Shown here: in pieces, positions 13,947 through 41,493 of the stretch
How positions within the stretch are numbered: the stretch's first letter is position 1
Layout: each line of letters begins with the position of its first letter
Assembly (NCBI GenBank): GCA_037574385.1
Contig: GCA_037574385.1_4529.1
Length of the DNA: 64,000 nucleotides
Strand: one strand, 5' to 3'
From: a phage
Translations under genes and position numbers: made by a program
The notes under the pieces: generated by a model
Seen by the model: only the letters and a program-made list of their open reading frames with translations
Told to the model about the DNA's origin: nothing
Database searches by the model: none

Positions 13947-15047
13947 TTACGCTGTGAAGATTTTATCCCACATTGCAACAACTGCATCTCGGTTATACTT
14001 CTTCCATACTGCTTCAGCACGTTTAACTCGAGCTTCGTATGTGTCAGTGAATTCTAATACAGCTTTTGTGTAAAGCGCAACTACTTCTTTCTTAGGAGTA
14101 GAGGAATCAATTTCTACACGCACAGTATCTGGGTCATATTCGAATGTCGCATGCGGATAATCCTTAAAAACTAACTGAATTACAGGGACACCTTTAGAAA
14201 TGGCTTCAATAGAACTATTCTCTACCGTACCTGTGTCAGGACACGTATTAATAAGTGCTTTAGCTGTTTTAAGACGTTCCATAATTTCACTGTGTGGAGC
14301 ATCAATAATAACAGGATACTTAGCCGGTGGTGCCCATTTACTAGGACAGTATCCTGCGCCATTTTCGCCTAGTGCTTTAATCGCTTCAAGAGCAACATCA
14401 GTACGACGCATTTTAGTGTCATAACGTTGTGCACTAATAATCAGATCAGTCGCCGGAAGAACTTCAGGTTTCTCATTCAAACAAATAACCGGATAATCTT
14501 CGGCTTCAAACAACGGATTTGCTCGCCAATAATCATAATCAATTTTGTCAGTCAGACCTGAAGTCATATAACAATATTTGCGTTCAAATTCACGGAAGGC
14601 TTTAGTAGGAGCATAACTCTTACCACCGTTCTTATGAATTTGAATAGTCTGGTCCCAAATTTGAACAATGCCACGAGATACCGGCTCAAACGGTGTTGCC
14701 ATAAAATTCTTATGAACTTTAGAGAGACCTGCGTCTTTAATTGCCTGAACGGTTAGTTTAGTCGGTTCCATTGTAACAACGAAATCGTACTCATTAATGC
14801 CGGCTAGTTCAACAATCTTACGAGCCATAGTATAACTCATACCTAGACTGAATTTAGTCAGATGACCAACAGGATGATGATTAACCTTCCAATCACCAAA
14901 CGTGTCATTATCAAAGCCGATATAATCAATATCAGCACCGATGGACACAAGATATTTCAACACATTTAAATGTACTGCTTCAAGACCACCTTGTACACGT
15001 TCTGGGTTAAACGGGACTGCGCGAGATGGGATAAACATAACTTTCAT
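13947..15047 (-). CDS. GT-B fold glycosyltransferase (candidate DNA sugar transferase)
   Basis: 366 aa; N-terminal Rossmann segment and C-terminal ENSSIEAISKGVPVIQ resembling the GT4 E-x7-E donor-binding motif; occupies the rIIA-39 gap. Confidence 0.55.
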   Translation of the reverse strand: MKVMFIPSRAVPFNPERVQGGLEAVHLNVLKYLVSIGADIDYIGFDNDTFGDWKVNHHPVGHLTKFSLGMSYTMARKIVELAGINEYDFVVTMEPTKLTVQAIKDAGLSKVHKNFMATPFEPVSRGIVQIWDQTIQIHKNGGKSYAPTKAFREFERKYCYMTSGLTDKIDYDYWRANPLFEAEDYPVICLNEKPEVLPATDLIISAQRYDTKMRRTDVALEAIKALGENGAGYCPSKWAPPAKYPVIIDAPHSEIMERLKTAKALINTCPDTGTVENSSIEAISKGVPVIQLVFKDYPHATFEYDPDTVRVEIDSSTPKKEVVALYTKAVLEFTDTYEARVKRAEAVWKKYNRDAVVAMWDKIFTA

Positions 15048-33337: not shown

Positions 33338-33700
33338 TTAAAAGAATTTAAATTTTTTCTTGGTTCGTTCATTAAAAGCTTGTTGTACCTGCATTGTAAC
33401 ACATTTTTCAACATGCGGCGCAAGTTCTGCTTTTCTGTCCTGGTCAAGAACTGCAAAGTCCATTACGATTTTACCATCAACCCAATCTAGTTTTGTAATA
33501 TAGACTATATGATGGGAGCCGTCTTCAAGTGTAATCAGAATCTCTTGAATGACATTTTCCATTGCTGAACGGATAATTTTAAGAGATTCATTAAACACTC
33601 GTTCTTTGCGAATGTCTTCCCCTTCCGAAGAAGGGGATTCATCAACGATTTCTAGATTCAAATCATCGAGATTATTCATCGAAATCTTCCATTTCGTCAA
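33338..33700 (-). CDS. 40: gp40-like protein
   Basis: 120-aa ORF between uvsX and 41 as in T4. Confidence 0.6.
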   Translation of the reverse strand: MTKWKISMNNLDDLNLEIVDESPSSEGEDIRKERVFNESLKIIRSAMENVIQEILITLEDGSHHIVYITKLDWVDGKIVMDFAVLDQDRKAELAPHVEKCVTMQVQQAFNERTKKKFKFF

Positions 33701-34844
33701 GGTCGTTTTCTATATCTGCTGCAGATGGAGCATCAGAAGCTTTAACCGGAACTTTAGTTGTTGCTTTGCAATTAATAAGGTCGTTAACAGCGTCATCAAC
33801 TTCTTTAATAGAAGAGATAGCACCTAGTTTATATTTAGTTTCAATTGCATCTCGGAAAGGTTTGTGTTTAAACAACGGTCCCCAGAATTCTACACAATCA
33901 GTAGCTTTAGCACGCCATGATTTCTCTTCACGAATCATTTCGCCTGTTTCTTCGTCAAGGAATTCGCGAGCATACCACCCAGCTTTAGGCTTAACTACAA
34001 AACCAATTTCGGTTGCCATTTCTAGCAAGCCACTGAATGGGTCGATACCGCCATCAAAATTAACCGTGATCGGGAAAGTAGATTTCTCTTTAACTGTACG
34101 AGATTTTTCTGCTTTCAACGTGAAGTCATAACCGGTCAATTCTGTACCTTCTTTAACCTGACGTTTAGAGATAAAGAATACAGTGTTAGCAGAGTAAAGA
34201 ATACCTGTACCACCGCCCATAATCTCTTTAGGATATAGTCCGCCGATTTCCATTGCGGTATGGTTGATTGCAACACACGGAATATCTTTAATAGTCAGAT
34301 AAGGAGTCACAATGCGGAAAAGAGATTTAAGTGCCTTAGCACGAGACATATCACCTACGACTTTCTCGTTCAATGCATCTTCGGTTTCTTTCTTAGATGC
34401 AGTATTACCGATTGAATCGATAAAGATAATAACTTTATCACCGCGTTCAATTGCATCAAGCTGATTAGTCATATCAACTTTAAGTTGTTCGACAGACTGA
34501 ATTGGTGTATGAACTACACGGTCTAAATCAACACCCATTGAACGAAAATAAGATTCTGAAGCACCAAATTCCGAGTCATAAAACAAACAGATTGCATCTT
34601 TATATTTCTTCATATACGCTGCAACCATAGTCAGCCCAAACAATGTTTTAAAATGTTTAGAAGGTGCAGCAAAAATAGTCAAGCCTGATTGCAATCCTGC
34701 ATTCAGAGCACCACCTAGTGCAATATTCAACATCGGAATACGAGTAGGGACTTCATCACGATTATTAAACAGCTTAGACTTAGTCAAGTCTGCAGTCATT
34801 TTAGAAGTAGAAGCTTTAATCAGACGAGATTTTAAATCAGACAT
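33672..34844 (-). CDS. uvsX: UvsX recombinase (RecA-like)
   Basis: 390 aa RecA-fold ATPase with acidic C-terminal tail; matches T4 UvsX. Confidence 0.95.
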   Translation of the reverse strand: MSDLKSRLIKASTSKMTADLTKSKLFNNRDEVPTRIPMLNIALGGALNAGLQSGLTIFAAPSKHFKTLFGLTMVAAYMKKYKDAICLFYDSEFGASESYFRSMGVDLDRVVHTPIQSVEQLKVDMTNQLDAIERGDKVIIFIDSIGNTASKKETEDALNEKVVGDMSRAKALKSLFRIVTPYLTIKDIPCVAINHTAMEIGGLYPKEIMGGGTGILYSANTVFFISKRQVKEGTELTGYDFTLKAEKSRTVKEKSTFPITVNFDGGIDPFSGLLEMATEIGFVVKPKAGWYAREFLDEETGEMIREEKSWRAKATDCVEFWGPLFKHKPFRDAIETKYKLGAISSIKEVDDAVNDLINCKATTKVPVKASDAPSAADIENDLDEMEDFDE

Positions 34845-34943: not shown

Positions 34944-35492
34944 TTAACGAGCCCATTTGATAATTTCTGTAATCAAATTATTACGTTCGCTTGCATTAAA
35001 TCCTATAACTTTGTTAGCACCATCATGATTAAGTAATTGATACGTTTGGATTTTGTTATGAATTGCAAACTCTTCAAAATGTGAAATGACTGTATTAAAA
35101 CCGAATGAAGACAAAGTAATAAGGTCGTCTTCAAAACTTTCAGTCATTTCGTTACGTGTTAAAATAATTGTGAACACATCATGGTTTTGGCAAAGACGAA
35201 TATAATCCTGTTCATAAACGTCAAGAACCGAGTCCGCATCTTGTCGAATACGTCCATAAACCCAGTTACTAATATATCCACGGTCTAATAGATAAATCTT
35301 AGTAGGGTCTAAATAATTCAACATCGTTTCGAAACAGCCAACTTCATTTCGAGACTTAACATCGAAACGCCCATCAACTGTTCGTTTAGGGAAATCAATC
35401 TTTACATATCTTTCACTAATTTCCATTATGTCATTAATGAAAGTTGTTTTACCAGCATTATCCGGTCCGTCTACTAAAATAATTTTAGCCAT
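34944..35492 (-). CDS. P-loop kinase (NMP-kinase/gluconokinase-like fold), substrate unknown
   Basis: 182 aa; Walker A LVDGPDNAGKTT at residues 5-16 and a later hhhhD Walker B-like segment. Confidence 0.55.
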   Translation of the reverse strand: MAKIILVDGPDNAGKTTFINDIMEISERYVKIDFPKRTVDGRFDVKSRNEVGCFETMLNYLDPTKIYLLDRGYISNWVYGRIRQDADSVLDVYEQDYIRLCQNHDVFTIILTRNEMTESFEDDLITLSSFGFNTVISHFEEFAIHNKIQTYQLLNHDGANKVIGFNASERNNLITEIIKWAR

Positions 35493-35493
35493 T

Positions 35494-36393
35494 TTATTCC
35501 TCGATTACGACATCTTCGTATTTAGGTATATTATACGGTGAAGAAATTAAAGCATTAAAGTAGATGAACTCACCAAGACCTGGATGGAATACTTCTTCAG
35601 GATTTTCGAAATATTGAATCTTCGGACGTCCTTTAAGAATTTGATAGTACTCAGTTTTAGTTGGTTTAAAAATTCGAATCAGCGCTTCTTCAGGGTACTT
35701 ATTTCTGTCGAAGCTAATATTTGGATCTGTTATATAAAGCGGTTGGCCTAATTGAATTGCACATTCAACCACTTGTTCAAAACGATAGCACGGGTCACTA
35801 ATTCGAAATGGATGAAAAATACCATCTAGATGAATAGGAGCCAAATCACCTACAAGACGCTGCATGATGGAAGGACGTATAACTTTCTGCGTTACGATAA
35901 TCTTATTACCATCTGCACCTGCGTTAACCAGCACTTCCTTTTGACGTTCATTCAACACAGTAGTTTGAAGTGAACGATTAACCGACAACATATCGGTTTT
36001 TAAGAATTCATCAATATAAAAGCGTGGTTTATTAGGGTCTGTAGTGATATTGAAATTGAATTCCACATCAAAAGCGCCATCATATCCAGTGATATCTGTG
36101 ATTAGAAAATCACAATCATAATAAGCAATTAATGAATCAACCACAAATTCATTTTCAGACCAGAAATATTTACGAGTGTTATACGCGTTATCTTTATACC
36201 ATAATGGAACAAACTTAAATTCCGGGAAAAGACGTTCACATTCTTTAATATCAGATGCATTACGTGGATATGTAATCACATCACCCGGATTAGCACGGTG
36301 CAAATGAAGTTGGAAGTTGCCATCCTTAAGGATAGCATACTGTCCAGTTTCATAAGACCGCATACTCAAGATTGGTACGCGGAAAATAGCCAT
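35494..36393 (-). CDS. hypothetical protein (299 aa) at the position of T4 beta-gt; candidate transferase
   Basis: No motif recognised; placed between uvsX and the hydroxymethylase where T4 encodes beta-glucosyltransferase. Confidence 0.5.
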   Translation of the reverse strand: MAIFRVPILSMRSYETGQYAILKDGNFQLHLHRANPGDVITYPRNASDIKECERLFPEFKFVPLWYKDNAYNTRKYFWSENEFVVDSLIAYYDCDFLITDITGYDGAFDVEFNFNITTDPNKPRFYIDEFLKTDMLSVNRSLQTTVLNERQKEVLVNAGADGNKIIVTQKVIRPSIMQRLVGDLAPIHLDGIFHPFRISDPCYRFEQVVECAIQLGQPLYITDPNISFDRNKYPEEALIRIFKPTKTEYYQILKGRPKIQYFENPEEVFHPGLGEFIYFNALISSPYNIPKYEDVVIEE

Positions 36394-37109
36394 TAGTCAA
36401 GGAATCCTTTAACATAATCAAAATCACGTTCAAACACATGGGCACTTACCATGGTATGAGTATAATCACCAACTTCTACACCGCATTCGTTAGCGATATA
36501 ATGAAGTAATTTTCCTTGGAGATAAAAATCCAACTGCATAACAACAGCACAGTTCTGAGAACGCATATGGCAGTGCGTATAAAGCTTACCATCACGAATA
36601 TAATAAGTAACTGAGTCAGTACATGGATATTCAAGCGTTTCGTCTGAATCAAGCAAAGCCTGATCAGAACTTTCTAGAATTTGGAACACAACTCTTCGGG
36701 AGTTAGGCTTCTCTTTAAGTTCTTTTAGAAGAGCTGGTAATTGGGCCGCAATGCGAGGACCATAGAAAGTGTTGAAGTTCGCCGGCAAAACATCTGATTT
36801 TGGTTTAGAAATAAATTTAGCGACATTAGGATATGCCTTAAACGCTTCTTCTGCGTTGGTACCACCAGAAATCATAAACTTCCAGAAGTCTTCGGCATAT
36901 TCATAAGAGATGCGGTTAATACGTGGGTCGGTCATTTTGAATGATGATGGAGTGTCAACAACTACTGTCATAGACCCAATTTCATTACAACGTCCAATAC
37001 GAGAATCAGTTACGAATTCCGGGTTTTCTAAAATTTCACGATTGACTGCTTTAAATGCGGTTTGAAAATCTGCGGCTTTGATATATTTCATTGTGTTATG
37101 TTTTCCCAT
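36393..37109 (-). CDS. thymidylate-synthase-family pyrimidine nucleotide hydroxymethylase (divergent gp42-like)
   Basis: 238 aa; SRRVVFQILES, EYPCTDSVTYYIRDGKL and VSAHVFERDF align with TS / dCMP-hydroxymethylase motifs (catalytic Cys in PCT). Confidence 0.6.
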   Translation of the reverse strand: MGKHNTMKYIKAADFQTAFKAVNREILENPEFVTDSRIGRCNEIGSMTVVVDTPSSFKMTDPRINRISYEYAEDFWKFMISGGTNAEEAFKAYPNVAKFISKPKSDVLPANFNTFYGPRIAAQLPALLKELKEKPNSRRVVFQILESSDQALLDSDETLEYPCTDSVTYYIRDGKLYTHCHMRSQNCAVVMQLDFYLQGKLLHYIANECGVEVGDYTHTMVSAHVFERDFDYVKGFLD

Positions 37110-37151
37110 GTTTACCTCAATACAATTTATTATATACTCAATTCGTAAAGC

Positions 37152-37391
37152 TTATTTGAATTTCTTGACAATGTTGATATAACGTAAAGCTTCAGCATCG
37201 ATACTTCCAAGGACACTATGAAGAAATGCATCAGCGTAGTATTCCAATTGAATAGGTTCTTTAATCACTTTAGCCGCTTTGGTTTCAAACAGGCCCATCA
37301 GGGCCTTTTTAAGAATTTGTTCGTTGCTGTTAATTTTCGTAGTCAAAATCTCTTCATTAAGTTGGTGGTTAAAAGTTTTTCTAGAAATCAT
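37152..37391 (-). CDS. hypothetical protein (79 aa)
   Basis: ORF within the cassette. Confidence 0.45.
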   Translation of the reverse strand: MISRKTFNHQLNEEILTTKINSNEQILKKALMGLFETKAAKVIKEPIQLEYYADAFLHSVLGSIDAEALRYINIVKKFK

Positions 37392-38563
37392 TCCGGGTAC
37401 CTCAAAGCGTCATCAGAGTTAGTTATATCAATAATAGATATAGAGTTTTCTGCTAACCCATTTTTAGATAATTGACGTTTATAATATCTTTCACAATATG
37501 TACACGTTGACCCACAGATTTCATTAGCACAATCAAAATCAGGATGTCTGAACCACCTTTTTTCTAAAAAGCCATCTAACAAAGAGGTTTCAATATTTAC
37601 TGTATGTGAAAACTCAGTCTCATTTTCAAGAGTGAAAATAGTCTCTAAAGGCTTCCACAGTTCTAACAAATTACCTTCAAACTTTTCAGAAGCGTATGCT
37701 TCAAGAACTTTCAAAATGTAGTCTGTGCTACCTGTACGTCCTGAAACTTTGAATTGAGTGATACCAATATCATTATAAAGTTTCAAATCTTGAGGACGAA
37801 CAAAACGAGTTCTCAACCAGTTAAATGGGTCTGTATCACGAGCTTTAATACAGTGCTGCATTGGATATCCATTTAAGGATTTAGCATCATCAGCTGTAAC
37901 ATCAGTACTATGGAAAATATAGCAAGAGTCACGATAGCTACAATGTGTTGTATACCCTTTACCAGCATTAGAACAGAACTCATTTACAAGAACTTCAAAT
38001 ATTATATTGTTCTTATTGCAAAACTCTGCTGCACGCTTCAGGAAAGAAACTGAACGGTTCTTATGAATTCCACAGCAGACCTTTTTGATATTATATTGGT
38101 CATGCAAGTATTTGATTTGAGTTACGGCATCGACATGTAGAATTGTTGAAACTTCAATCTCAATATCTTTATTGACTTCACGAACAATTTCCATAACAAC
38201 AGGGTTAGCGATAGTAATACGCCATACGCCTATTGACCAAAGATACTGAACATAATCCTGAATAGCTTTCTTCTTCCACTCAACTAGTTCTCTTTTTGAA
38301 CCAGGATTTATCGTGTTGAGTGTATAGTTAAAGCAAATACCTAATTCGTTACAACGTTTAACGTAGTCTTCTAACATCTTTTTGTCAACGTCAGGAAGCC
38401 TAAAATCAGGTCTGGCTGCTACAAAAGCCATTTCTCTTGTAGAGCCATATACTTCGTTTATCAAGCTATTAGGATAGGTTTTATTGAGCTCTACGATTTT
38501 ATCAAGAAGAGCTAAATCAAAATTCGTTCCGATTTTAAAAGTATTCATTTTTTTGCATCTCAC
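37388..38563 (-). CDS. Cys-rich hypothetical protein (391 aa), possibly metal/Fe-S binding
   Basis: Several conserved-looking Cys; C-terminal C-x4-C-x3-C-x2-C (CANEICGSTCTYC). No family assignable by eye. Confidence 0.5.
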   Translation of the reverse strand: MRCKKMNTFKIGTNFDLALLDKIVELNKTYPNSLINEVYGSTREMAFVAARPDFRLPDVDKKMLEDYVKRCNELGICFNYTLNTINPGSKRELVEWKKKAIQDYVQYLWSIGVWRITIANPVVMEIVREVNKDIEIEVSTILHVDAVTQIKYLHDQYNIKKVCCGIHKNRSVSFLKRAAEFCNKNNIIFEVLVNEFCSNAGKGYTTHCSYRDSCYIFHSTDVTADDAKSLNGYPMQHCIKARDTDPFNWLRTRFVRPQDLKLYNDIGITQFKVSGRTGSTDYILKVLEAYASEKFEGNLLELWKPLETIFTLENETEFSHTVNIETSLLDGFLEKRWFRHPDFDCANEICGSTCTYCERYYKRQLSKNGLAENSISIIDITNSDDALRYPE

Positions 38564-38604
38564 GTTAATTGATGCGATGGTTTTTGCAGGTCTTACTTAA
38601 ATTA

Positions 38605-39006
38605 TTATAGATTCGGTTTATATGATTTAAATGTTTCGAATTCGCCTTTATTCATAAGAGCTTTGAATTCGTCAGGACGCATAGCTTTGTCGTCGATAAT
38701 CCAATCATATACTGGTTTATGTGTTAGCAAATTATGGTACTTCAAGCCAATGTTTGCCAAGTTCTGAATCAGACTTGGGAGAATGTCAATTGCTATACGT
38801 CCAGGACCTACTGACTTCATACCACGAGCAGTGTAAAGCGTTATGGTATGCCCTGCATCATACAGGGCATTAATGGCAGACACCATTTCGACGTCTGGTT
38901 TGAAGTTCACGTAATCGCGATTGTTATTCCATTCTGTGATGCAATCATCGACATCAAAACAAAGATTAAGCATGTTTTCTACACGGTGCATTAGATTTGT
39001 TCCCAT
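38605..39006 (-). CDS. small HAD-superfamily phosphatase
   Basis: 133 aa; motif I FDVDDCIT near N-terminus; later T/S and K/D motifs consistent with a capless HAD phosphatase. Confidence 0.55.
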   Translation of the reverse strand: MGTNLMHRVENMLNLCFDVDDCITEWNNNRDYVNFKPDVEMVSAINALYDAGHTITLYTARGMKSVGPGRIAIDILPSLIQNLANIGLKYHNLLTHKPVYDWIIDDKAMRPDEFKALMNKGEFETFKSYKPNL

Positions 39007-40676
39007 TGATGAGTGATATCGCCACCGATTGGACGATAAGAAACACCAGTTTCTTTATCAGTTAGTACCCATTTACCAGGATTTTTTGTAATCAGAGTAG
39101 CCGTTACAGGTTCTGCTACGTCATAACTAATAGAGCCGTCTTGAAGTACACGGCCCATGTTACGTAATTGCTTAGTTAGAAGTTCCATACCTTTATAATA
39201 TGCGGCTACCGCTTTAAGTGGATTATTCTTGAAATAACCACCTAATGCAATCCAGATAATTGCCACTGCCAAATGATGATACTCGTTAAACGAACTCATC
39301 TTTCCATATTTGTAAACTAATGGATTGATGTTAATAGTCACATTACAAGTTGTTTCATCAATAATAAACTGGCCCCAGGTCGGATTAGCGTTGAATTCAT
39401 CATAACCTGAAACAGCATAAAGCACTTTAGCTTCATCATACAATTTTGGCCCGTAAATCTTGGTTTCACCAAAATATCCACGAGGGTCGATAAACTTGAC
39501 TTCGCCGTTATCAGTAATCATAGTATTACTGAAGTTCGGGTCACCGTGAATAACAGAGTACTGTCCCTGAGAACGGTTATGATAACGAATAAGGTGTTCT
39601 AAAGCTTGTTTCAGCATTGGCTTCAGACGTCCAATCTTAGTGTAGTTCACGTGTGTGATTTTACCAAATGAATCAATCAATGGCTGAATGCTTTCACAAC
39701 GATCAATAACTTTCGTATAGAACTCTTTAGTGAAATCACGACGAACAGTTTCAGGACTTACAAAATAAATGTCTGTGTTAAATTTCAGTGCATCTAAAAT
39801 TGCATCAATAATTTGTGGACGAGCAAGACTTGATTTGGATTTAATATATTCAAATGCTGGCTTACCTTTAATGCGTTCCATTTCAAAGTTATTTTCATTA
39901 ACAGAAACTAACTGAGGAACTGAATCTGATTTCACTTTCAAATACCATGAAATCTCATCTTTTTGAAGAGCTCGACCTTGTTCAGTTAATGCGAATTTAG
40001 TTACAGTTTCTTCACCAATTTCAACCGCATTAAAACTACGATTAAGTTCACGAACTTCATGAGCTTTTTCAAGTTTAGGCATATCACCAAGGTCGATGAT
40101 ATTCATAAGCTCTGATTTATTGAATGCGCCGCTGTAAAGGAATTCTACAAAATCACGTCCTTTGCAGTATTCGTGAATTTCCTCATCAGTAGAACCCATG
40201 TAGAATTCCCAGTCTTTGAACTGATAAATTCCTACAACATTACCGCCTGTTGCACCTACATTAGTGATATTTTCACCATCGAAATTATATCGACATTCAT
40301 CACCTTTAACATAGATTGCGTTAACATTCCAAGACCATGAACCAAAATCAGGAATAATATCACACCAGTTAACAACTACGTTATGGCCGTCTAAATCTTT
40401 GTGTAATTTAGCAAGAGCATAAGCAGAACCATACGCTTCATCAACTGTACGAATAGTCACATTGAACCCTTCTTGCTCACAATAAGCTCGAACAGTTTCA
40501 GCAAATTTTGAATGAACTACTACAATAATTTCATCTGCGCCAAGGTCAGAATAAATTGTATACAAATTGCTCAGAATAGTGTCTTGTTTATAGTTCACAA
40601 GAACTTTTGGAATATGGTGAGTAATTGGATATAAACGAGTTGCCAATCCAGCACCAAGAATAACAGCTTTTTTCAT
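38991..40676 (-). CDS. bifunctional sugar-1-phosphate nucleotidyltransferase / APH-type anomeric sugar kinase
   Basis: 561 aa; N-terminal ILGAGLATRLYP (G-x-G-x-R nucleotidyltransferase signature); C-terminal HGDPNFSNTMI...KFIDPRG matching the APH/choline-kinase catalytic loop. Confidence 0.65.
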   Translation of the reverse strand: MKKAVILGAGLATRLYPITHHIPKVLVNYKQDTILSNLYTIYSDLGADEIIVVVHSKFAETVRAYCEQEGFNVTIRTVDEAYGSAYALAKLHKDLDGHNVVVNWCDIIPDFGSWSWNVNAIYVKGDECRYNFDGENITNVGATGGNVVGIYQFKDWEFYMGSTDEEIHEYCKGRDFVEFLYSGAFNKSELMNIIDLGDMPKLEKAHEVRELNRSFNAVEIGEETVTKFALTEQGRALQKDEISWYLKVKSDSVPQLVSVNENNFEMERIKGKPAFEYIKSKSSLARPQIIDAILDALKFNTDIYFVSPETVRRDFTKEFYTKVIDRCESIQPLIDSFGKITHVNYTKIGRLKPMLKQALEHLIRYHNRSQGQYSVIHGDPNFSNTMITDNGEVKFIDPRGYFGETKIYGPKLYDEAKVLYAVSGYDEFNANPTWGQFIIDETTCNVTININPLVYKYGKMSSFNEYHHLAVAIIWIALGGYFKNNPLKAVAAYYKGMELLTKQLRNMGRVLQDGSISYDVAEPVTATLITKNPGKWVLTDKETGVSYRPIGGDITHQWEQI

Positions 40677-40713
40677 GTTGAAGTCCTCATTGGTAAGTAG
40701 GTGTATTGTACAC

Positions 40714-40860
40714 TATTCTAGTTAAAGCATTCATACTTTGCCTGTAGACCAATCATAATCCATCCAATTACAAGTGTTGGAATCATTACTGGAGCCGTTA
40801 AGCTCCAGTAGATAGTCATGACAAGCATCAATAGTAAAAGTCCTATTGTTATTGCTTTCA
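40714..40860 (-). CDS. possible small membrane protein (~48 aa, below threshold); positional candidate for Imm-like protein
   Basis: Hand translation MKAITIGLLLLMLVMTIYWSLTAPVMIPTLVIGWIMIGLQAKYECFN; ATG overlaps the upstream stop (ATGA). Confidence 0.35.
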
Positions 40861-41493
40861 TTGTTCGCCTCGTAACATGGCACCTAGTGCACCGCCAGGG
40901 TGGAACTTAAGGAAATCATTAGAGGTAAATCCGCGTTCAGACGAAAGGTTGATAGCGAACGTATCGATAAGCGCTAACAACAATGTAGTGGACATAGTCG
41001 GAGCTAAAGAGTTCTCGTCAACTTCTACCGCGATACCGGTACAGAATGTATAATCAAAAAGAGCTTCGTATTCTTGTGGAATGTCAGGGTTACAATGTAA
41101 CAGAATCTGTTTAACCTGAGGACGAATCATACGAAGATGTTTAGCAACACCTATCATTTCTTCAGTCTTACCAGAACGACTGATGTGAACTAATACATCA
41201 TTAGGTGCAATGAATCCTGCATCACCGTGAGAATAATGCCCAGTGTTCAAATACATGCTAGGAATACCTAGTGAAGCAAAAGTCTCGGAAGCTTTAGTTG
41301 CGATATTAGCGTTCTTACCAACACCTGTAATAATTACACGACTTTCATAATTACTCAGTCCTGGGCGTCGAAGAGTTTCTAGAATAGCATTATAACGAGC
41401 AGGGTTTTGACTAATTACTTTGGCCATAGCGGCCAAAGAAGAAGCTTGTTTTATGATTGCGTCAATAGCGATAGTGATTGGTGTAGTTTTCAT
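40858..41493 (-). CDS. SIS-domain sugar-phosphate isomerase, D-arabinose-5-phosphate isomerase (KdsD/GutQ)-like
   Basis: 211 aa; ITGVGKNANIATKASETFASLGIPS matches the SIS phosphosugar-binding motif; single SIS domain without CBS domains. Confidence 0.65.
   Translation of the reverse strand: MKTTPITIAIDAIIKQASSLAAMAKVISQNPARYNAILETLRRPGLSNYESRVIITGVGKNANIATKASETFASLGIPSMYLNTGHYSHGDAGFIAPNDVLVHISRSGKTEEMIGVAKHLRMIRPQVKQILLHCNPDIPQEYEALFDYTFCTGIAVEVDENSLAPTMSTTLLLALIDTFAINLSSERGFTSNDFLKFHPGGALGAMLRGEQ

Follow-up and report, generated by a model that had tools for sequence, protein, structure and literature searches.

A thymidylate-kinase-like protein and a compact GT-B glycosyltransferase encoded next to the 5-hydroxy-dCMP synthase homolog of an RB69-like phage

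In phage T4, beta-gt (encoding beta-glucosyltransferase) and segA are located between gene 42 and uvsX, and the study describing this arrangement also reported arabinose in RB69 DNA and implicated the same gene module that is considered here (Thomas et al., 2018; PMC6024577). RB69 virion DNA was subsequently shown to carry mono- and di-arabinofuranosyl-5-hydroxycytosine, with the sugar in the alpha-D-arabinofuranosyl form, and no hydroxymethylcytosine derivative (Lee et al., NAR 2026; PMC13326640). [quoted passage not shown] The same authors list gp46:47 as predicted "arabinosyltransferase 1" and gp45 as "nucleotide kinase," the latter without a specific step (PMC13326640). A T4 gp1-type dNMP kinase of RB69, gp159, phosphorylates 5hodCMP in vitro, and gp159 together with gp48 is enough for incorporation of 5hodC in E. 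coli (PMC13326640). Single transferases of phage DLP3, including the homolog gp79, did not arabinosylate 5hoC-containing DNA ("data not shown"), and the authors state that they cannot distinguish transfer of the first sugar to the mononucleotide from transfer to DNA (PMC13326640). A second group found an identical gene layout in Mosigvirus NP (PMC13390438), and arabosylated 5-hydroxycytosine has now been demonstrated in the DNA of RB69, NP, Bas46/47, and HY126 (PMC13326640; PMC13390438).

In RB69-like phages, arabinosylated 5-hydroxycytosine gives protection against restriction enzymes, DNA glycosylases and some CRISPR systems, and the pathway is relevant to phage therapy and to the enzymatic production of glycosylated DNA. 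The Afh proteins and gene cluster of HY126 were reportedly introduced by He and colleagues in 2026, and Mahler and colleagues are said to have dealt in 2025 with Aat, the arabinosyltransferase of Bas46. Within this otherwise published pathway, the kinase and the first transferase are the least characterised steps, and it is to the genes for these two proteins that our analysis of a 64,000-nt stretch of phage DNA (hereafter the window) is devoted. Both ORFs are present on the minus strand where a preliminary description, made from the DNA letters, had placed them (Table 1).

The window comes from a Mosigvirus, an RB69-like relative of T4. A 2.4-kb stretch of it is 98-99% identical to more than 150 genomes of this genus, whose hosts are E. 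coli and Shigella. Relative to the RB69 GenBank record, the stretch encoding synthase, transferase and kinase has 98.0% nucleotide identity and one indel, of 1 nt: the record contains an additional T at about window position 35850, which splits the RB69 transferase gene into ORF047c and ORF046c; the ORF is intact in the window. At the protein level, the kinase shares 180 of 182 residues with RB69 ORF045c and the synthase 237 of 238 with gp48 (ORF048c), while the 299-aa protein is 98.7% identical both to RB69 ORF046c+047c and to HY126 XAN60474. The synthase is also near-identical to PDB entries 9iqc, 9ir2 and 9iqu. Its RSQN...D motif, read by eye in an ungapped register, corresponds to the published D169N signature plus N177D; this register keeps R166/S167 and a 31-residue Cys-to-Asp spacing, in agreement with the published D169N signature. 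An automatic pairwise alignment with E. coli ThyA placed RSQN two residues out of register and was rejected in favour of the ungapped one. The isomerase, the bifunctional kinase/uridylyltransferase, the HAD phosphatase and the second transferase accompany the synthase in the window (36393-41493; 13947-15047), and by orthology of both proteins the locus belongs to the RB69-type arabinosyl-5-hydroxycytosine cluster (RB69 gp45-gp55). Judged by their sequences, both genes have near-identical orthologs that are already published and annotated in RB69 and HY126, and they represent known biology; what was found in the window is a rediscovery of annotated biology.

Table 1. Positions of the three-gene unit, its neighbours and related genes in the window.
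Feature	Position	Strand	Relatives and matches
uvsX	33672-34844
P-loop nucleotide kinase, thymidylate-kinase-like, 182 aa	34944-35492	-	ortholog of RB69 ORF045c and HY126 XAN60473
Compact GT-B glycosyltransferase, 299 aa, predicted first (base-proximal) arabinosyltransferase	35494-36393	-	ortholog of RB69 ORF046c+047c, HY126 XAN60474 and Thanatos TH1_063
Thymidylate-synthase homolog, 238 aa, 5-hydroxy-dCMP synthase, first gene of the trio	36393-37109	-	RB69 gp48 ortholog; Pfam Thymidylat_synt 2.3e-15
U32-family protein	37388-38563	-	RB69 gp50 ortholog; Pfam Peptidase_U32 7.4e-11; weak NCBIfam match to UbiU
HAD-type phosphatase, UDP-arabinofuranose supply	38605-39006	-	RB69 gp51 / HY126 AfhF equivalent; PHROG 1238, 5.3e-43; role from PMC13326640
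Bifunctional nucleotidyltransferase and kinase, 561 aa	38991-40676	-	RB69 gp52:53 / HY126 AfhE equivalent
Arabinose-5-phosphate isomerase, SIS domain	40858-41493	-	RB69 gp55 ortholog; Pfam SIS 9.6e-10; PHROG 5670 "arabinose 5-phosphate isomerase" 2.6e-116
Second GT-B arabinosyltransferase, 366 aa	13947-15047	-	RB69 ORF003c ortholog; separated from the cluster by about 20 kb

The genes run in the order synthase, 299-aa transferase, kinase, followed by uvsX, so that the 299-aa protein does occupy the beta-gt slot of T4, as had been noticed beforehand. The synthase stop codon overlaps the transferase start in the sequence TAATG, and the kinase ATG lies one base past the transferase stop, with a ribosome-binding sequence, GAGGAA, inside the end of the upstream gene. 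A promoter and terminator scan found no terminator-like site within the trio; the number of sites that it returned overall was not above that in shuffled sequence. Given the overlapping or abutting stop and start codons and the lack of an internal terminator-like site, the three genes probably form one tightly packed, co-translated unit. Among the remaining cluster genes, the 561-aa protein matches Pfam NTP_transferase at its N-terminus (8.1e-10) and has weak APH/fructosamine-kinase matches at its C-terminus. PDB 9iqz is a near-identical match to the 366-aa transferase, whose sequence shows no similarity to that of the 299-aa transferase.

The 182-aa protein begins MAKIILVDGPDNAGKTT (translation of 34944-35492, minus strand) and contains the textbook Walker A motif that had been pointed out earlier, GPDNAGKT. 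The small NMP-kinase-type fold also suggested at that stage is borne out by fold recognition, which returned the thymidylate-kinase fold with dTMP kinases as the best structural matches; a P-loop and a DR(Y/H) motif are present as well, and the closest structural or sequence relationship is not to T4 gp1 (PDB 1dek). The GxDxxGK(S/T)T and FPK(R) elements align with vaccinia and yeast TMPK (GLDKSGKTT...FPQRST), and the TMPK DRY motif has its aligned counterpart in the invariant D70-R71. Across the kinase family K36 is invariant, whereas the FPxR arginine is not. The score against TIGR00041 is 16.5 bits, to be compared with a cut-off of 83.25; there was no match to Pfam Thymidylate_kin (PF02223), other family searches gave only sub-threshold P-loop matches, and some distant members of the kinase family match PF02223 faintly. 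The protein is thus thymidylate-kinase-like in fold and motifs and, in view of the TIGR00041 score, not an ordinary dTMP kinase ortholog.

The 299-aa protein had been described as having no recognisable motif, and at the sequence level this is true: no Pfam or NCBIfam match was obtained at E values up to 0.1, Glycos_transf_1 and Glyco_trans_4 included, and a profile built from 52 members of the family found no glycosyltransferase among PDB sequences. Fold recognition gave a GT-B architecture, with two Rossmann-like domains superposable on known GT-B (GT4-like) enzymes. Structural matches were sucrose-phosphate synthase (6kih, 17.7), BshA (6n1x, 16.9), PimA (2gej, 16.0), the 366-aa transferase of phage HY126 (9iqz, 14.6) and T4 alpha-glucosyltransferase (1y6f, 13.2). 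T4 beta-glucosyltransferase was absent from the top 60, which argues against a relationship to that enzyme: although a transferase belonging to the same fold class in the broad sense, the occupant of the beta-gt slot is no relative of beta-GT, and neither its sequence nor close structural homology makes it a member of the beta-glucosyltransferase family. R197, K246 and H270-P271-G272 are invariant in the family and, by sequence position, fall within the C-terminal half of the protein. The preliminary description had named as fatal to it an ordinary thymidylate or dNMP kinase next to a structural or unrelated protein, and half of this picture fits: the kinase is thymidylate-kinase-like though not an ordinary ortholog, and the 299-aa protein is neither structural nor unrelated.

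How the two genes are distributed among phages bears on their function. Matches to the transferase came from 349 phage records and at least 139 protein clusters; for the kinase there were 344 phage records, with a nearly identical genus breakdown. Both ORFs are therefore conserved genes and not chance ORFs. Profiles of the proteins encoded in the window were run against 57 viral-contig loci collected by way of the transferase family. Kinase and synthase homolog were both present in all 48 close-family loci whose flanking DNA sufficed for a decision, and the trio was contiguous within 3.3 kb in 39 of these. Synthase, transferase, kinase is the order in most loci; the order is kinase, synthase, transferase in Dhakavirus-type loci, and in Marfavirus and Proteus phage loci a U32 gene separates the kinase. 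Four further loci, reached from the most distant kinases, again showed synthase, transferase and kinase in that order, and Thanatos carries the trio as TH1_062/063/064. In 13 loci, all of them environmental contigs, the trio was found while the examined flanks, at most 10 kb on each side, showed neither an isomerase nor a uridylyltransferase nor a phosphatase; sugar genes could thus be elsewhere in those genomes. A flavodoxin-like reductase gene lies directly upstream of the synthase in two of these 13 loci. Retention of the trio where arabinose genes were not seen suggests that the kinase belongs with the modified base and the first transferase and not with arabinose supply. What is new here is that the genes for 5hodCMP synthase, transferase and kinase travel together, and this linkage suggests that the trio serves glycosyl-5-hydroxycytosine DNA generally, as its portable core. 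The options are thereby narrowed, and the question becomes sharper whether the nucleotide or the DNA receives the first sugar. On co-occurrence of the two genes with the sugar module, a check proposed in the preliminary description, the pair keeps company with the synthase in 48 of 48 loci, and the arabinose-supply genes are missing from the examined flanks of 13. More distantly, three loci (L051, L054 and L058) have weak kinase matches, obtained with a broader profile (E 5e-11 to 2e-4), abutting distant transferase-like genes; here a U32-family gene sits beside the distant GT1-like genes and there is no thymidylate-synthase homolog. In relatives of this kind, with the pair and a U32 gene, the U32 protein might conceivably supply the 5-hydroxyl.

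The explanation that we prefer, with a probability of roughly 0.6, is that the kinase phosphorylates a modified dCMP and the 299-aa GT-B enzyme adds the first arabinose, both within an RB69-like arabinosyl-5-hydroxycytosine cluster; we infer the substrates. The thymidylate-synthase homolog would turn dCMP into 5-hydroxy-dCMP, as shown for the near-identical RB69 gp48. The 182-aa protein, a putative divergent deoxynucleoside-monophosphate kinase of the thymidylate-kinase type, would then use ATP to convert the modified dCMP (5-hydroxy-dCMP or a glycosylated form of it) to the diphosphate, and the product would enter the dNTP pool and be incorporated. The 299-aa protein, as a minimal GT-B enzyme, would take arabinofuranose from UDP-arabinofuranose and place it on the cytosine 5-hydroxyl as the first, base-proximal sugar, and the 366-aa transferase would then add the second arabinose. 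No phosphorylated adduct and no chemistry beyond glycosylation is implied. The idea of a cooperating kinase and transferase in the beta-gt slot, as put forward in the preliminary description, thereby survives as far as the transferase, the NMP-kinase-fold enzyme and a functional link between them are concerned, and finds no support where it considered phosphorylation beyond nucleotide activation. An extension of the pathway past glycosylation through a phosphorylated sugar, a nucleotide adduct or DNA hydroxymethyl groups does not agree with the reported virion products, which are mono- and di-arabosylated 5-hydroxycytosine, nor with the assignment of arabinose kinase activity to the 561-aa enzyme; and the hydroxymethylated base (hmC) assumed there gives way to 5-hydroxycytosine, the base of RB69-type phages (PMC13326640). 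Several observations count against our preferred explanation. A plain 5hodCMP kinase would look redundant, given that RB69 gp159 already phosphorylates 5hodCMP; DLP3 gp79 was inactive on 5hoC DNA (PMC13326640); a different activity was reported for Thanatos TH1_063 (Brandt et al.); and the kinase falls below every curated thymidylate-kinase threshold, with an FPxR arginine that varies within its family.

A related scheme puts glycosylation before replication: the 299-aa enzyme would arabinosylate 5-hydroxy-dCMP itself, the kinase would be dedicated to the bulky arabinosyl-5-hydroxy-dCMP, which a general gp1-type kinase may not accept, and the glycosylated triphosphate would be polymerised. To our knowledge, all established phage DNA glycosylations, T4's among them, act on DNA after replication, and this weighs against the scheme. 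It would account for the fact that the tightest linkage of the kinase is to the transferase, with weak matches abutting even in the three loci that lack the synthase, although these distant kinase matches are weak in themselves; for the survival of the trio through rearrangements of gene order; and for the presence of a second kinase in a phage that already has a 5hodCMP kinase. The inactivity of the DLP3 homolog on 5hoC DNA, with nucleotide-level transfer left open by the authors, points the same way (PMC13326640), but the negative assay belongs to data that are not shown and could reflect technical failure. Moreover, unglycosylated 5hodC can be incorporated and later arabinoses are added on DNA (PMC13326640), and the phage polymerase would have to accept a 5-O-arabinosyl-dCTP. 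On balance we regard glycosylation of the mononucleotide as doubtful, with a chance that should nevertheless be taken seriously; if true, this pathway would be the first in which DNA glycosylation precedes replication, with kinase and transferase as an obligate pair.

Other roles for the two proteins were considered and rejected. Many GenBank records and PHROG 761 name the 182-aa protein dTMP kinase, which would make it a plain enzyme of dTTP supply unrelated to modification, and dTMP kinases are indeed its best structural matches, with faint PF02223 matches in some distant members. T4-type phages use gp1 for dTMP, however, and RB69 has a gp1-type enzyme in gp159; the kinase's distribution, moreover, mirrors that of the transferase (344 versus 349 records; 48 of 48 loci) and not that of T4-like phages generally. 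Together with the TIGR00041 score so far below its cut-off and the missing Pfam Thymidylate_kin match, this makes the plain dTMP kinase role improbable; where substrate specificity is concerned, the gene linkage speaks for a modified dCMP in place of dTMP. Action on a sugar (arabinose) or on a DNA-borne hydroxyl, in the manner of 5-hydroxymethyluracil DNA kinases, would have the kinase activate a group or add a phosphate-containing adduct. P-loop DNA kinases do occur in thymidine hypermodification pathways, and a P-loop kinase does adjoin the transferase here. Yet mono- and di-arabinosyl-5-hydroxydeoxycytidine are the sole derivatives described for the DNA of RB69, a result that speaks against both a phosphorylated adduct and a kinase acting on DNA hydroxyls; with a UDP-sugar as donor, the acceptor does not have to be activated; and the kinase's motifs correspond to those with which thymidylate kinases bind dNMPs. 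A sugar kinase is contradicted by the linkage of the gene to base and transferase, with kinase accompanying synthase and transferase where no arabinose genes were seen, and by the assignment of arabinose-5-phosphate phosphorylation to the 561-aa enzyme (PMC13326640). We give these sugar and DNA-hydroxyl roles hardly any credence. For the 299-aa protein, the purified Thanatos homolog TH1_063, 47.5% identical and in the same position, produced UDP-xylose from UTP and xylose-1-phosphate and transferred nothing to DNA, dCMP, dCTP or cytosine (Brandt et al.), and the protein of the window could correspondingly produce the sugar donor, as a UDP-pentose pyrophosphorylase, and not transfer it. Since those acceptors carried no 5-hydroxyl, failure to see transfer is what one would expect; the fold is GT-B and not that of a nucleotidyltransferase; a nucleotidyltransferase domain is already provided in the cluster by the 561-aa protein, which is credited in HY126 with UDP-arabinose pyrophosphorylase activity (PMC13326640); and the trio occurs in the 13 loci with no sugar-supply genes in the examined flanks. 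A pyrophosphorylase is accordingly a highly improbable identity for the 299-aa protein.

Among known systems, T4 beta- and alpha-glucosyltransferase have no detectable sequence similarity to the 299-aa protein, which has no Pfam matches; they are also larger (351 and 400 aa), and they attach glucose to a hydroxymethyl group, whereas the RB69-type sugar is arabinofuranose and its acceptor the ring 5-hydroxyl. T4 gp1 dNMP kinase offers an analogy in the job proposed for the 182-aa kinase, namely phosphorylation of a phage-specific modified dCMP before replication. The eukaryote/poxvirus-type TMPKs (vaccinia A48, yeast Cdc8, and human TMPK) share 14-19% identity with the kinase. It differs from type I TMPKs by an asparagine in the P-loop where they have arginine, and from TMPKs by a set of family-specific invariants (S75, N76, Y79, R113, F120, D122, D123, F132, and N133) and by its strict linkage to a cytosine-modification module. 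Closest are RB69 gp45 with gp46:47 and DLP3 gp78 with gp79, along with the Afh cluster of HY126 and Aat of Bas46; at the protein level there is essentially no difference from the window, whose transferase ORF is unsplit in contrast to the RB69 record.

The order of the modification module's genes varies by lineage. It is kinase-synthase-transferase in Dhakavirus-type loci (related viral loci L013-L017 and L022) and phosphatase-kinase-U32-synthase-transferase in Marfavirus and Proteus phage loci (L007-L009, L027, and L028), and clustering is kept in all of these loci despite the reordering. Two environmental contigs, L004 and L064, carry the synthase-transferase-kinase trio, with no arabinose genes seen in the DNA scanned, and have a Flavodoxin_2 gene directly upstream of the synthase homolog (see table). 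This placement fits the flavin dependence reported for 5-hydroxy-dCMP synthases.

The 'peptidase U32' protein of the window may take part in forming the 5-hydroxyl, either as a substitute pathway or in an auxiliary role. We take its family to be that of RlhA, TrhP, and UbiU/V. These are oxygen-independent hydroxylation factors, whose targets are the C5 of pyrimidines and ubiquinone. The window protein's match to UbiU in an NCBIfam profile search was weak, and the published label of RB69 gp50 is 'sugar or heterocycle reductase.' In several distant loci (among L051, L054, L056, L057, L058, and L060), a transferase-like gene has as its neighbor a gene that matches U32 strongly (E values from 1e-108 to 1e-127), and the flanking DNA scanned at these loci contains no thymidylate-synthase homolog.

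Coordinates of features discussed here (window positions unless a locus is named)
Feature	Position	Strand	Remark
Second arabinosyltransferase, 366 aa (RB69 ORF003c ortholog)	13947-15047	-	Near-identity to 9iqz/9ir0
'Peptidase U32' protein, 391 aa (RB69 gp50)	37388-38563	-	Member of the window's modification cluster
79-aa ORF (= RB69 ORF049c)	37152-37391	-	Between U32 gene and synthase
TH1_063, homolog of 299-aa protein	L002 (Shewanella phage Thanatos-1) 5995-6897		47.5% identical
Flavodoxin_2 gene (NAD(P)H-dependent FMN reductase-like)	L004 4739-5293		Directly upstream of synthase homolog
Flavodoxin_2 gene (NAD(P)H-dependent FMN reductase-like)	L064 3653-4252		Directly upstream of synthase homolog
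RB69 stretch with split transferase gene	L066 (RB69 AY303349.1) 1501-2401		Extra T at window ~35850

The second arabinosyltransferase, encoded between rIIA-sized and topoisomerase-sized genes, is near-identical (E 2.6e-248) to a solved structure that the fold-search listing gives as a phage HY126 glycosyltransferase. A GT-B fold is common to this protein and the 299-aa transferase, and comparison of the two found no sequence similarity. For TH1_063, UDP-xylose pyrophosphorylase activity in vitro has been reported (Brandt et al.), an activity difficult to square with the GT-B fold of this protein. The adjoining gene product, TH1_064, is a homolog of the kinase (44% identical) and goes unmentioned in that report.

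In the RB69 GenBank record, one extra T at window position ~35850 (GTAGTGTGA in RB69, GTAG-GTGA in the window) leaves the 299-aa gene in two pieces, ORF047c and ORF046c. The published view that this split is a sequencing error is supported by our comparison, because the ORF is unbroken both in the window and in the other Mosigvirus genomes among the matches listed. The gap that separates the U32 gene from the synthase holds an ORF of 79 aa in the window; in the HY126 record, a shorter ORF of 40 aa is annotated there, directly after the U32 gene.
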